Of a DNA stretch of 42,406 nt, positions 1-41,398 are shown in pieces. Within the stretch, counting starts at the first letter, position 1, and each line of letters opens with the position of its first letter. A model generated the notes under the pieces. That model was not told the DNA's origin. It was given only the letters and a program-made list of their open reading frames with translations, and searched no databases. Location: the IMG/VR virus record IMGVR_UViG_2663762841_000006, positions 1-42,406 of that record; one strand, 5' to 3'. A program made the translations under genes and the position numbers. The stretch comes from a virus. Lineage: Duplodnaviria > Heunggongvirae > Uroviricota > Caudoviricetes.

Positions 1-870
1 TTGCTTGACAGCTTCACCGAAAAAATGGCGCGAAATTTTCATTTCGAATATGGAACAGCGCGCGCCTGGGGATCTTTTGGCTATGCTATTGGCGCGTTCT
101 TTGCCGGCATATTTTTTAGTATCAGTCCCCATATCAACTTCTGGTTGGTCTCGCTATTTGGCGCTGTATTTATGATGATCAACATGTGTTTTAAAGATAA
201 GGATCACCAGTGCGTAGCGGCGGATGCGGGAGGGGTAAAAAAAGAGGATTTTATCGCAGTTTTCAAGGATCGAAACTTCTGGGTTTTCGTCATATTTATT
301 GTGGGGACGTGGTCTTTCTATAACATTTTTGATCAACAACTTTTTCCTGTCTTTTATGCAGGTTTATTCGAATCACACGATGTAGGAACGCGCCTGTATG
401 GTTATCTCAACTCATTCCAGGTGGTACTCGAAGCGCTATGCATGGCGATTATTCCTTTCTTTGTGAATCGGGTAGGGCCAAAAAATGCATTACTTATCGG
501 TGTTGTGATTATGGCGTTGCGTATCCTTTCCTGCGCGCTGTTCGTTAACCCCTGGATTATTTCATTAGTGAAGCTGTTACATGCTATTGAGGTTCCACTT
601 TGTGTCATATCCGTCTTCAAATACAGCGTGGCAAATTTTGATAAGCGCCTGTCGTCGACGATCTTTCTGATTGGTTTTCAAATTGCCAGTTCGCTTGGGA
701 TTGTGCTGCTTTCAACGCCGACTGGGATACTCTTTGACCACGCAGGCTACCAGACAGTTTTCTTCGCAATTTCGGGTATTGTCTGCCTGATGTTGCTATT
801 TGGCATTTTCTTCTTGAGTAAAAAACGCGAGCAAATAGTTATGGAAACGCCTGTACCTTCAGCAATATAG
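1..870 (+). CDS. cscB: LacY-family oligosaccharide:H+ symporter (MFS), C-terminal 289 codons only; 5' end outside window; probably sucrose permease CscB-like
   Basis: ORF open from window edge; translation aligns by eye with the C-terminal half of LacY (EKMARNFHFEYGTARAWG ~ EKVSRRSNFEFGRARMFG; YNIFDQQL ~ YDVFDQQF; GPKNALLI ~ GGKNALLL; LHAIEVPL ~ LHMFEVPF). Symbol is an inference from family plus argW-adjacent context. Confidence 0.7.
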   Translation: MLDSFTEKMARNFHFEYGTARAWGSFGYAIGAFFAGIFFSISPHINFWLVSLFGAVFMMINMCFKDKDHQCVAADAGGVKKEDFIAVFKDRNFWVFVIFIVGTWSFYNIFDQQLFPVFYAGLFESHDVGTRLYGYLNSFQVVLEALCMAIIPFFVNRVGPKNALLIGVVIMALRILSCALFVNPWIISLVKLLHAIEVPLCVISVFKYSVANFDKRLSSTIFLIGFQIASSLGIVLLSTPTGILFDHAGYQTVFFAISGIVCLMLLFGIFFLSKKREQIVMETPVPSAI

Positions 871-1312
871 ACGTAAACTTTTTCCGGTTGTTGTCGATAG
901 CTCTATATCCCTCAACCGGAAAATAATAATAGTAAAATGCTTAGCCCTGCTAATAATCGCCTAATCCAAACGCCTCATTCATGTTCTGGTACAGTCGCTC
1001 AAATGTACTTCAGATGCGCGGTTCGCTGATTTCCAGGACATTGTCGTCATTCAGTGACCTGTCCCGTGTATCACGGTCCTGCGAATTCATCAAGGAATGC
1101 ATTGCGGAGTGAAGTATCGAGTCACGCCATATTTCGCTATCAGGATTCTGTGTGATGGTTACATCGCCCGGCCCAGGGCTGTTTAGTCATCAGCGCTTTC
1201 TGACAGTGCTGAGATTTCAACCTGTTGCAGTAAAAATGAGTAGATATAAGGCAAGTGTGCTGCCAAACCCATCTTTTACGGGGTGAAGGTAGATTTCGTT
1301 TGAAGGGTATCT

Positions 1313-1326
1313 GGTGTCCCTGCAGA
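1313..1326. other. putative att core copy (left prophage junction); tggtgtccctgcag, a one-base-deleted copy of the argW 3' terminus
   Basis: Direct comparison with 41324..41338 (tggtgtcccctgcag) inside the intact tRNA. Confidence 0.55.
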
Positions 1327-1384: not shown

Positions 1385-1404
1385 TTTTACCCGCTATTTT
1401 ACCC
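1385..1404. repeat. two direct copies of TTTTACCC (1385..1392, 1397..1404), putative integrase arm-type binding sites
   Basis: Same 8-mer occurs three more times at 41163..41207 beside the int start; five copies of an 8-mer within the two att-flanking regions is far above chance. Confidence 0.5.
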
Positions 1405-1599
1405 ATTGGCGCGGCTTAAGAGCTTATTTTTGAATTCACAATGGTCACGATATAACCATCTTGCTCGCCCGTGGATAACTTTGGCTTTAGGCAGGTCTCC
1501 GGACTTAATCCGGTCATATATGAAGGTTTTACCGAAGCCAGTATCAGCCATGATGAATTTCAAATCAACCAGGGAATCAGGCTGTAGTTCGTGTTGCAT
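1399..1599 (-). CDS. AlpA-family HTH DNA-binding protein, putative excisionase/Xis
   Basis: 66 aa; motif LKFIMADTGFGKTFIYDRIKSGDLPKAKVIHGRARW typical of AlpA/Xis-type MerR-like HTH; sits next to the att core and arm repeats. Confidence 0.65.
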   Translation of the reverse strand: MQHELQPDSLVDLKFIMADTGFGKTFIYDRIKSGDLPKAKVIHGRARWLYRDHCEFKNKLLSRANG

Positions 1600-1722
1600 G
1601 AGTGCTATCTCCGAATAGGGAATCGAACCTGCAAATCAGGTAATAAAAAAACCGCATTGATGCGCCGATGGTAGGTCTGGATATCTTGATAAATGAAAAT
1701 GCCTCATCGAGTGTGAGGCGGG

Positions 1723-9948: not shown

Positions 9949-10776
9949 ATGGGGTATGTCTCTATACACCGCCAGTTTATGGACAGCAGGCTCTATAAGG
10001 ACTCTCAGGCAGTACATCTTTGGCTTCACTTAATCCTCAAGGCTAATCACGAATCTACTGTCGTCAATACGGATATCGGTCCGATAACTGTTGATCGCGG
10101 TCAGATGATAACTGGACGCCCGTCGCTGGTCAGAGAAACATTCATTCCCGACAACAAAGTTCGGAGCTTATTACGGACTTTTGAGTCGAAAGGGATGCTT
10201 AATATTTGCTCGATGGGGAAGAAATTTAGCCTGTTTACAATCGTTAAATATGACGATTTTCAGGCAAAAAATTGTCCAACGGTTGTCCAACGGTTGTCCA
10301 ACGCAAACACCAGTAATGGCGCGGCTCTCAGTGGAGATTGTCCAACGGTTGTCCAACGGTTGTCCATAAACAATAATATAAATAATATCTCTAATACTGA
10401 CGTATTAGAGAGTGCCACAGCAGACAAAAAGTCTGACAAGAAAAAACCTTCCGTTAGCTGTCAGGATGTTGTCGATGCTTACCACGAAATCCTTCCTGAA
10501 GCGCCAAGAATCCGCGCACTGAATGACAAGCGTAAAAACCAGATCCGAACGTTCTGGCGCAAAGCCGGAGTGATAACCCGCCAGCTTGACGGACATGGGT
10601 TCACGATGCAGGACTGGAGAAATTATTTGAGCTACGTAGGCGAAAATTGTCGATGGATGTTCGAAGAGCGTCCAAACCATCAACGTGGAACTGTCTGGCA
10701 CAAAAAGGGATTTGATTTCCTGCTTAACGATAATACCTACCTGAAAGTTCGTGAGGGTGAACACGATGACCGATAA
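9949..10776 (+). CDS. replication initiator (lambda O / P22 gene 18 analog) containing the origin iterons
   Basis: AGGAGG RBS before ATG 9949; six 11-bp iterons inside the gene; immediately followed by the helicase gene. Confidence 0.65.
   Translation: MGYVSIHRQFMDSRLYKDSQAVHLWLHLILKANHESTVVNTDIGPITVDRGQMITGRPSLVRETFIPDNKVRSLLRTFESKGMLNICSMGKKFSLFTIVKYDDFQAKNCPTVVQRLSNANTSNGAALSGDCPTVVQRLSINNNINNISNTDVLESATADKKSDKKKPSVSCQDVVDAYHEILPEAPRIRALNDKRKNQIRTFWRKAGVITRQLDGHGFTMQDWRNYLSYVGENCRWMFEERPNHQRGTVWHKKGFDFLLNDNTYLKVREGEHDDR
10272..10400. repeat. replication origin: six iterons TTGTCCAACGG (10272..10304 and 10338..10370) followed by an AT-rich stretch (10368..10400)
   Basis: Exact tandem repeats seen directly; in-frame, encoding the repeated peptide CPTVVQRLS. 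Confidence 0.75.
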
Positions 10777-17339: not shown

Positions 17340-17414
17340 GGGTCAGTCGTATAAAGGTCATTACGGAAGGCTGTTAACCTTCTTATCGTGGTTCGAGTCC
17401 ACGCTGCCCCTCCA
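17340..17414 (+). tRNA. tRNA with GUU anticodon (Asn-type), 75 nt, one U4-C69 mismatch in acceptor stem
   Basis: Manual cloverleaf fold: acceptor gggtcag/ctgcccc, anticodon stem gaagg/ccttc, loop cuGUUaa, T-arm cgtgg-ttcgagt-ccacg, encoded CCA. Confidence 0.6.
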
Positions 17415-17419
17415 AATAT

Positions 17420-17495
17420 GCTGGTTTAGCTCCAATGGTAGAGCAGTCGCCTTGTAAGCGAATGGGTAGCGGTTCAAGTCCGTTAACCAGCACCA
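17420..17495 (+). tRNA. tRNA with UGU anticodon (Thr-type), 76 nt
   Basis: Manual fold: acceptor gctggtt/aaccagc perfect, D-stem gctc/gagc, anticodon loop cuUGUaa, T-arm agcgg-ttcaagt-ccgtt, encoded CCA. Confidence 0.65.
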
Positions 17496-40004: not shown

Positions 40005-41198
40005 TTAATCAACCTTCCCATCAAGCCAGTCTGCCCACCACTGCATCATTTCTCTGCGTTTGTCGAGATACTGAGCATGGTTGTAAATTCCACGCACAGA
40101 ACCGCCGTTGGCATGTGCCAGTTGCACTTCAATAGCATCAGCGGGCCATTCGTGCTCGTTCATAATCGTGCTGAATTCATGCCTGAATCCGTGACCGCTT
40201 TCCAGACCCTCATAGCCGATTTGTTTGATCACAAGCAATACCGCGTTCTCGCAGATTGGCTTCTTCTTATCGTTGCGCCCGGCAAAAACAAACTCTGATA
40301 CTGGTTTGGTGATTGAGCTTAGCGTAGTGAGAAGTTCAACCACCTGGTCCGACATCGGGACCACATGAATTTTGCGGCCCTTCATCACACTGGCGTCGAT
40401 GGTGATAATCCTGTTTTCAAAATCGACGTTCTTCCATAGCATGGAACGAAGCTCTTTCGTTCTTAGGGCAGTGTAGCGTAAAACTTTGGTCGCAATGAGC
40501 GATACGATACTTCCTGAAAATGTTGCAAGTGCTTTGTTGAATGCCGGGATCTGGTCGGCAGGTAAAAACGGGAAGTTCTTCTTGCGGTATCCCTTCATGG
40601 CGTCAGCAAGGTCAGGTGCCGGGTTATATTTAGCCCTACCAGTGACAATAGCGTAACGGAAAACCTCGCCGCATCTTCTGCGGGCTTTGTTGGCTCGCTC
40701 CATTGCACCGCGATCTTCAAATCTGCGGATTACTTCCAGCAGTTGCATCGGCTCAATATCCTGAATTTCAAGGCCGCCGATGATAGGTAAAATGTCGTCA
40801 TCAAACATTTTTGCAAGTTCATTTGCATAGCCTACTGACCAGACTTGCTTCTTGTGCTCGTACCATTCCTTGTAAATGGCGCTAAAGGAATTGTTGTTAG
40901 ACGAAGCCTTTTTCGCTTTTACCGGATCGATGCCAACCGAGATGTCTTTCCTCGCGGTCCATGCTTTATCCCTTGCCTCCTGCAAAGTCATAAGCGGATA
41001 TTTTCCGACGGTCAGGATTTTCTCCTTACCGTCAATCTTGTAGCGAAGCTGCCATACCTTTTTCCCTGATACAGGGACATAAAGGTACAGGCCATTACCA
41101 TCGAGTAGGCGGTATGGTTTTTCTTTCGGCTTTGCTGCTTCAATCTGCTTAACGGTGAGCATGGGTAAAAATCCGGTGGGTAAAATTATTTTATCCAC
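40005..41198 (-). CDS. intS: tyrosine integrase, IntS (CPS-53/KpLE1)-like, P4-type
   Basis: 397 aa; C-terminal catalytic region (HGFRHEFST...HA...RGIYNHAQY); adjacent to argW; true start may be ATG at 41162 (MLTVKQIE). Confidence 0.85.
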   Translation of the reverse strand: MDKIILPTGFLPMLTVKQIEAAKPKEKPYRLLDGNGLYLYVPVSGKKVWQLRYKIDGKEKILTVGKYPLMTLQEARDKAWTARKDISVGIDPVKAKKASSNNNSFSAIYKEWYEHKKQVWSVGYANELAKMFDDDILPIIGGLEIQDIEPMQLLEVIRRFEDRGAMERANKARRRCGEVFRYAIVTGRAKYNPAPDLADAMKGYRKKNFPFLPADQIPAFNKALATFSGSIVSLIATKVLRYTALRTKELRSMLWKNVDFENRIITIDASVMKGRKIHVVPMSDQVVELLTTLSSITKPVSEFVFAGRNDKKKPICENAVLLVIKQIGYEGLESGHGFRHEFSTIMNEHEWPADAIEVQLAHANGGSVRGIYNHAQYLDKRREMMQWWADWLDGKVD

Positions 41199-41207
41199 TT
41201 TTTACCC
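41163..41207. repeat. three copies of the TTTTACCC arm-type repeat (two inverted at 41163..41170 and 41178..41185, one direct at 41200..41207)
   Basis: Same 8-mer as at 1385..1404; overlaps the int start region. Confidence 0.5.
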
Positions 41208-41323
41208 GTCATGGAGTGCGGCTGTCAACGATCTGACGCGAACCATGACGAACTGCGAATCTACGGAAGGCTTGATATTCATGGGATTTTGCGGACTGGT
41301 ACGGATGGGAGCGAACTGATAAA

Positions 41324-41398
41324 TGGTGTCCCCTGCAGGAATCGAACCTGCAATTAGCCCTTAGGAGGGGCTCGTTATATCCATTTAACTAAGAGGAC
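41324..41398 (-). tRNA. argW: tRNA-Arg (anticodon CCU), intact; 3' end forms the prophage att core
   Basis: 75-nt cloverleaf read from the reverse complement, ending GGGGACACCA; anticodon loop cuCCUaa. Confidence 0.9.

Follow-up and report, generated by a model that had tools for sequence, protein, structure and literature searches.

The right end of the prophage carried in the stretch of DNA analyzed here (42,406 nucleotides, referred to as the window) raises the question of what role is played by a short word that is repeated between the start of an integrase gene and the tRNA gene into which the prophage has inserted. The preliminary description of this junction reported three copies of the 8-mer TTTTACCC beside the int start and the att core in argW, mirrored by two more at the left end, and it read these copies as the arm-site motif of the integrase, as support for the assigned prophage boundaries, and as a sign that int is autoregulated. 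The features that bear on these three readings are collected in Table 1.

Table 1. Features at the two prophage junctions, with positions in the window. Arm-type sites and TorI sites are predicted by correspondence with the K-12 module.
Feature	Position	Strand	Remarks
Left att core (attR core in K-12 naming), CTGCAGGG-ACACCAG	1311..1325	-	1-nt deletion
P-arm arm-type site, GGGTAAAA in torI sense	1385..1392	+	same in K-12 attR and in HK620/Sf6 attP
P-arm arm-type site	1397..1404	+	overlaps torI last codon (GGG) and stop (TAA)
torI, recombination directionality factor (excisionase)	1399..1599	-	66/66 identical to K-12 TorI
Exact 16-nt copy of the argW T-arm (TTGCAGGTTCGATTCC)	1619..1634	-	19 nt upstream of torI ATG
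int, IntS-type tyrosine integrase, 385 aa	40005..41162	-	382/385 identical to K-12 IntS
P'4 arm-type site, TTTTACCC	41163..41170	-	exact copy; adjoins int ATG directly
P'3 arm-type site, TTTTACCC in int sense	41178..41185	-	exact copy; inverted relative to P'1 and P'2; in int 5' UTR
P'2 arm-type site, GGATAAAA in int sense	41189..41196	+	one mismatch to the 8-mer
P'1 arm-type site, GGGTAAAA in int sense	41200..41207	+	exact copy; identical in K-12 attL
PintS -10 box, TAAAAA	41199-41204		overlapped by P'1; identical to mapped K-12 PintS
PintS -35 box, TTGACA	41223..41228	-	18-nt spacer to -10; identical to K-12
TorI sites I3, I4, I5 (CAGTTCGT, TGGTTCGC, CAGATCGT)	41228..41255 (41248-55, 41238-45, 41228-35)	-	10 bp spacing; I5 touches the -35 box
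TorI sites I1 (CAGTTCGC), I2 (CAGTCCGC)	41291..41318 (41311-18, 41291-98)	-	12 nt apart
Right att core, CTGCAGGGGACACCAT (ATGGTGTCCCCTGCAG on the window strand)	41323..41338	-	16 nt; 3' end of argW
argW, tRNA-Arg(CCU), integration target	41324..41398	-	found by ARAGORN

Counted over the whole window, TTTTACCC was present in six exact copies against an expectation of 1.13 ± 1.24, and none of 100 shuffles reached six. Five of the six are located in the two att-flanking regions: the three at the right junction were found where they had been described, starting at 41163, 41178 (inverted) and 41200 (direct), and the two that they were said to mirror were confirmed at the left end. The enrichment at the ends that such a count had been expected to reveal is therefore real, and the prophage body of 39.7 kb (1405 to 41155) contained no exact copy. 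The remaining copy, at 233-240 on the minus strand, is situated in the host flank, 1.1 kb outside the prophage and inside the coding sequence of cscB (oligosaccharide permease), so that the statement that the word is restricted to the att flanks holds for the five copies there but not for the sixth. As this copy is also present in the prophage-free strain EC195, which has an empty attB, it is ordinary host coding sequence; it has nothing to do with the att sites, and about one copy is what chance alone would give. Hence the 8-mer was common neither throughout the prophage, with no copy in the body, nor in the host flank, with one. The host flank (window 1-870) is a csc sucrose-utilization locus and not dsdC as in K-12. 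In the two related genomes that were inspected, the annotation marks the cscB homologue as a pseudogene interrupted by an internal stop.

A one-mismatch copy, TTTTATCC, was found at 41189-41196 on the plus strand, between the right-junction copies already listed. One-mismatch variants as a class numbered 62 in the window compared with 28.7 in shuffles, but this enrichment was rejected as a meaningful signal, because it was gone when composition-matched permuted 8-mers were used as the control (mean 37.9, sd 14.4, with 3 of 60 reaching 62).

Read in the direction of int from argW, the right junction (attL in K-12 naming) consists of the core, two GTTCG-type sites, a block of three sites, TTGACA, an 18-nt spacer and then the arm sites, which follow one another as GGGTAAAA (holding the -10 box TAAAAA), GGATAAAA, TTTTACCC and TTTTACCC, the last leading directly into the ATG; together they span 41207-41163. 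The att core had been placed inside argW, and it is indeed located at the 3' end of this gene; homology to phage attP stops at the same core. The repeats had also been said to overlap the int 5' region, which is correct for the promoter and the 5' UTR but not for the coding sequence, as the right-end copies are positioned between the -10 box and the int ATG at 41162-41160. A longer int ORF initiated at GTG was rejected, the ATG being taken as the real start. The region from the core to the -35 box holds the five predicted TorI sites in two blocks, with the spacings of 12 nt and 2 nt given in the published description, and the coordinates of the sites differ from the published ones by no more than 2 nt. 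The one-mismatch copy would correspond to P'2, and in this predicted position it spans the transcription starts, which map to window 41192/41193 when carried over from K-12 by identity. A simple promoter scan did not call the published PintS, as the scan accepts only a -10 box whose sixth position is T; the promoter that it proposed instead (ATGACG-16-AATAAT) was set aside in favor of the experimentally mapped promoter of K-12.

Over 283 nt, the right junction proved to share 99% identity with attL of KplE1 (CPS-53), a cryptic prophage of E. coli K-12. All five substitutions relative to K-12 fall outside the sites, and P'1-P'4, I1-I5 and the -35 and -10 boxes are identical, while the left junction aligns with K-12 attR through torI, both 8-mers and the core. 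The IntS arm-type sites on the K-12 module were reportedly mapped by footprinting by Panis et al. in 2007 (JBC). KplE1 is bordered by the 16-nt core CTGCAGGGGACACCAT, and the intS promoter (TTGACA / TAaAAa) overlaps attL, where the IntS arm-type sites P'1-P'4 are located (Panis et al. 2010, PLoS Genet, PMC2951348). These sites all contain TAAA, P'1 overlaps the -10 box TAaAAa, and transcription starts 30 nt upstream of the intS ATG; attL further holds five TorI sites in two blocks, of GTTCG/GATCG/GTCCG type (PMC2951348). The exact edges of the published arm sites used here were inferred from the 2010 text (PMC2951348). The four TAAA words of the window (GGGTAAAA / GGATAAAA / TTTTACCC / TTTTACCC) exactly match this description of P'1-P'4, and the identification of the 8-mer as the arm-site motif of the integrase thus agrees with the published IntS sites on nearly identical DNA. 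PintS is repressed about 5-fold by IntS and is also repressed by TorI through I4 and I5 (PMC2951348), so that the suggested autoregulation of int has a measured counterpart on K-12 DNA and, judged by the sequence, would be expected here as well.

The proteins agree with this picture. Pfam domains of int comprise Arm-DNA-bind_3 (residues 2-86), Phage_int_M and Phage_integrase, and residues 1-113, which include the arm-binding domain, are 100% identical to K-12 IntS. The genes int and torI are located 39.7 kb apart at opposite prophage ends, with int predicted to be transcribed away from the tRNA-side junction. The boundary assignment was borne out by the empty attB of strain EC195, in which the csc sequence of the left flank (up to 1325) continues into argW with nothing in between. 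A duplicated core, CTGCAGGGGACACCA(T), flanks the prophage; its right copy is intact and its left copy is 1 nt short, with one base of the G4/C4 run missing, whereas the near-identical lysogen 1EC187 and the empty site of EC195 have the run in full. Either the homopolymer was misread in sequencing, or the deletion is a mutation, which may prevent excision. If real, it would predict that the prophage is no longer able to excise, and the arm sites may then no longer serve excision here. The stretch that separates the left core from the P sites contains one candidate IHF match (1343-1355). Within the prophage, genes for tRNA-Asn(GTT) and tRNA-Thr(TGT) were observed in mid-genome (window 17340-17495), and an iteron- or operator-like array of 11-bp direct repeats (TTGTCCAACGG) occupies window 10260-10366 in two clusters 44 nt apart.

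Relatives of the module were collected with the integrase in two ways. A scan of viral contigs gave at least 527 relatives, but the best 80 of 527 were all 98-100% identical and useless for footprinting; the diversity was supplied by a scan of genomes, which returned argW-linked relatives from many Enterobacterales genera. In 13 argW-linked relatives from 10 genera, with 66-83% protein identity, the site layout was kept while the spacers diverged, in the order -35 / GGGTAAA / GGGTAAA / TTTTACCC / TTTTACCC-ATG. Conservation across these 13 relatives was 0.94 in the arm-site columns compared with 0.66 in the other columns from core to ATG (permutation p = 5e-4), and both GGGTAAA of P'1 and TTGACA of the -35 box were invariant in 14 diverged attL sequences. 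A second clade of integrases (58-72% identity) has its copies at the same positions, with every copy changed to GYGGGCATA / TATGCCCAC. Phages Emek and phiEt88, whose integrases belong to this clade, show the switch in both arms, and their P-arm copies are found right after the excisionase stop. Residues that separate the clades occur in the arm-binding domain, for example Q38 versus R/H in the strand KVWQLRY. In some members of the second clade the excisionase-site word was observed to be GTWAC instead of GTTCG.

What is new here is that the layout is kept in diverged relatives and that a second clade switches all copies to GGGCATA/TATGCCC. Arm-type sites would be expected to change together in both arms and in step with the integrase clade, as observed; promoter signals alone give no such expectation. 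As attB is shared, this switch suggests arm codes that are naturally orthogonal although the core is common to both clades. That one layout occurs with two arm words independently backs the published site assignments to a modest degree, and the comparison singles out residues of the arm-binding domain as possible determinants of arm specificity.

The position of the right-end copies invites the view that they are signals for the promoter and the translation of int only (-10 box, A/T-rich leader and start context), that their similarity is incidental and that no integrase binds them. One copy does hold the -10 hexamer and another touches the ATG. However, two identical copies are found 40 kb away at the torI stop, where there is neither a promoter nor a start, the second clade switches all copies in both arms in concert, and arm-type binding has been published on identical DNA (PMC2951348); we consider this view highly improbable. 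Binding of the repeats by a protein other than the integrase, such as TorI, IHF or a phage repressor, deserves attention because att arms normally hold excisionase and IHF sites too, and a weak IHF-like match overlaps 41192-41204. Yet the TorI sites are of GTTCG/GATCG/GTCCG type and occur elsewhere (41228-41318), matches to the IHF consensus are at chance level in the window (59 vs 52.9), and KplE1 in K-12, which is without a repressor, still shows the regulation (PMC2951348). In addition, the arm word changes along with the clade of the integrase and with its arm-binding domain, which leaves another binding protein with very little probability.

Clustering by chance, or as a compositional effect of A/T-rich junction DNA, was also considered, and it can point to the one-mismatch variants across the window (62 in all) and to the exact copy in a host gene. 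The excess of such variants vanishes against composition-matched controls, and for at least five exact copies in the two 100-bp att-flanking windows the Poisson probability is about 4e-14. With the sites conserved across genera while the spacers diverge, the likelihood of a chance cluster is practically negligible.

Considering all the above results, the TTTTACCC copies and the one-mismatch copy very probably form the P' arm of an argW-integrated prophage with the KplE1/HK620/Sf6 module, which is bound by the integrase and takes part in its autoregulation. This assignment draws on the identity with the K-12 module, the integrase domains, the limits of the prophage as established here, and sites that are conserved among relatives and vary in concert. 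We infer that the binding of Int and TorI, the transcription start and the approximately 5-fold repression known from K-12 transfer to this prophage. In the model that we propose, the N-terminal arm-binding domain of IntS would bind the 8-bp P' sites and the two P-arm sites beside torI, and its C-terminal domains would attach to the 15-16-bp core in argW and cleave it. Arms and cores would be bridged in this way, and the resulting complex, shaped by TorI at the five GTTCG-type sites and by IHF, which both bend the DNA in between, would integrate the phage (attP x attB) or excise it (attL x attR).

The int promoter would be embedded in the P' arm, with its -35 box at 41223-41228, its -10 box at 41199-41204 and its start at about 41192. 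Because int is directed away from the core, with its promoter in the P' arm, occupancy by the integrase would shut off transcription of its own gene: sitting mainly at P'1, over the -10 box, the bound integrase may block access to the promoter and keep int low and constant, with excision governed by the expression of torI. TorI at I4/I5 beside the -35 box could repress int further. In K-12, single mutations in P'2, P'3 or P'4 leave the repression of PintS intact, and the role of P'1 is inseparable from the -10 box (PMC2951348). The lack of effect of these single mutations points to P'1 on the -10 box (41200-41207), and not to the copies beside the start codon, as the likely operator of autorepression.

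The finding is thus correct and already known. Our results support all three claims of the preliminary description, but these restate published knowledge for a near-identical module, and no new biology follows from the arm-site finding itself. Its value is that the prophage boundaries are fixed and that the module is recognized as the intensively studied IntS/TorI system, whose regulation can be read from the literature.

Upstream of torI, the left junction contains a further element, the exact 16-nt copy of the argW T-arm. The source of this copy is the argW sequence next to the att core, on the attB-side flank of the crossover, and the copy is found at the same place in K-12, HK620 and Sf6. 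A pattern search with the T-arm returned mostly real tRNA genes, and only matches followed by an excisionase ORF were kept. A T-arm element of 12-16 nt with the core aGGTTCGATTCCC is present 5-6 nt upstream of the excisionase RBS in at least five diverged lineages of argW-targeting phages. Carriers of aGGTTCGATTCCC include Emek, phiEt88, two metagenomic lineages and Erwinia phage Midgardsormr38, in which it is a tandem duplicate; it was absent in Chronis and EhrS_49, where the excisionase gene directly follows another gene. The T-arm of argW is nearly invariant across 20 loci. The copy persists where the integrase arm word and the excisionase-site word have both changed, so that it follows the target tRNA and not these two specificities.

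A second att core or a nested element was rejected as an explanation of the 16-mer at 1619-1634, because it occupies the same place in K-12 and in free-phage attP. An Rfam search of the region upstream of torI gave noise only, and the copy is unable to form the T-arm hairpin. It could be an extra core-type half-site of the integrase, an element that regulates the excisionase gene, or what selection has preserved of a longer tRNA-identity block. We regard it as possible, though rather unlikely, that the module holds in this copy one more, undescribed control element upstream of the excisionase gene. If it were an extra core-type (B-like) site, Int would control either the expression of the excisionase or the geometry of the intasome, and control of the excisionase by Int, if true, would be the reciprocal of the repression of intS by TorI. 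A terminator-like hairpin followed by a T-run (CGCATCAATGCG + T7) was observed just upstream of the T-arm copy and torI (window 1640-1680, minus strand), and HK620 and Sf6 have a hairpin of different sequence at the same place upstream of torI. The hairpin suggests that read-through into torI is controlled by termination.

Among known systems, KplE1 shares with the present prophage the argW target, the 16-nt core and the two P-arm sites at the torI stop codon. It differs in being a 10-kb remnant, compared with a complete P22-like prophage of about 40 kb here, in its host flank (dsdC there, the csc sucrose locus here), and in lacking the 1-nt deletion that the distal core has here. The module is also present at 97-98% identity in HK620, Sf6, CUS-3 and many Stx2 phages. 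In the attP of HK620/Sf6/CUS-3 (Lederbergvirus), this identity covers int, the P' arm and the core alike, there are five exact TTTTACCC copies in matching places, and the GenBank records of these phages annotate attP repeats, the attP core and the int promoter. In contrast to the prophage, they represent the unintegrated form, with the P and P' arms contiguous around one core, and the rest of their phage genome is mosaic and unlike that of this prophage.

In phage lambda, attP contains the arm-type sites P1, P2 and P'1-P'3, which are bound by a heterobivalent integrase, and int is co-transcribed with xis from pL or transcribed from pI inside xis, with no overlap between int and the att sites and no autoregulation through att. 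The likeness to lambda consists in short arm repeats on both arms that are unlike the core sites, with excisionase and IHF sites between them. In contrast, int and the excisionase gene flank attP on opposite sides here and are adjacent in lambda, and the module here has four P' and two P sites in other orientations. With int and torI 39.7 kb apart and the int promoter inside the P' arm, the locus does not have the int/xis organization of lambda type. In the satellite phage P4, the int promoter likewise overlaps att, and Int and the excisionase repress int (Piazzolla et al., cited in PMC2951348), although for Vis, the excisionase of P4, the proposed target is int mRNA and not DNA (PMC2951348). 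P4 thus resembles the present system in its integrase family, in the location of the int promoter over att and in dual repression, and differs in its tRNA target and its site sequences. Every sequence-testable defining feature of the KplE1/HK620/Sf6-type module was found in this prophage.
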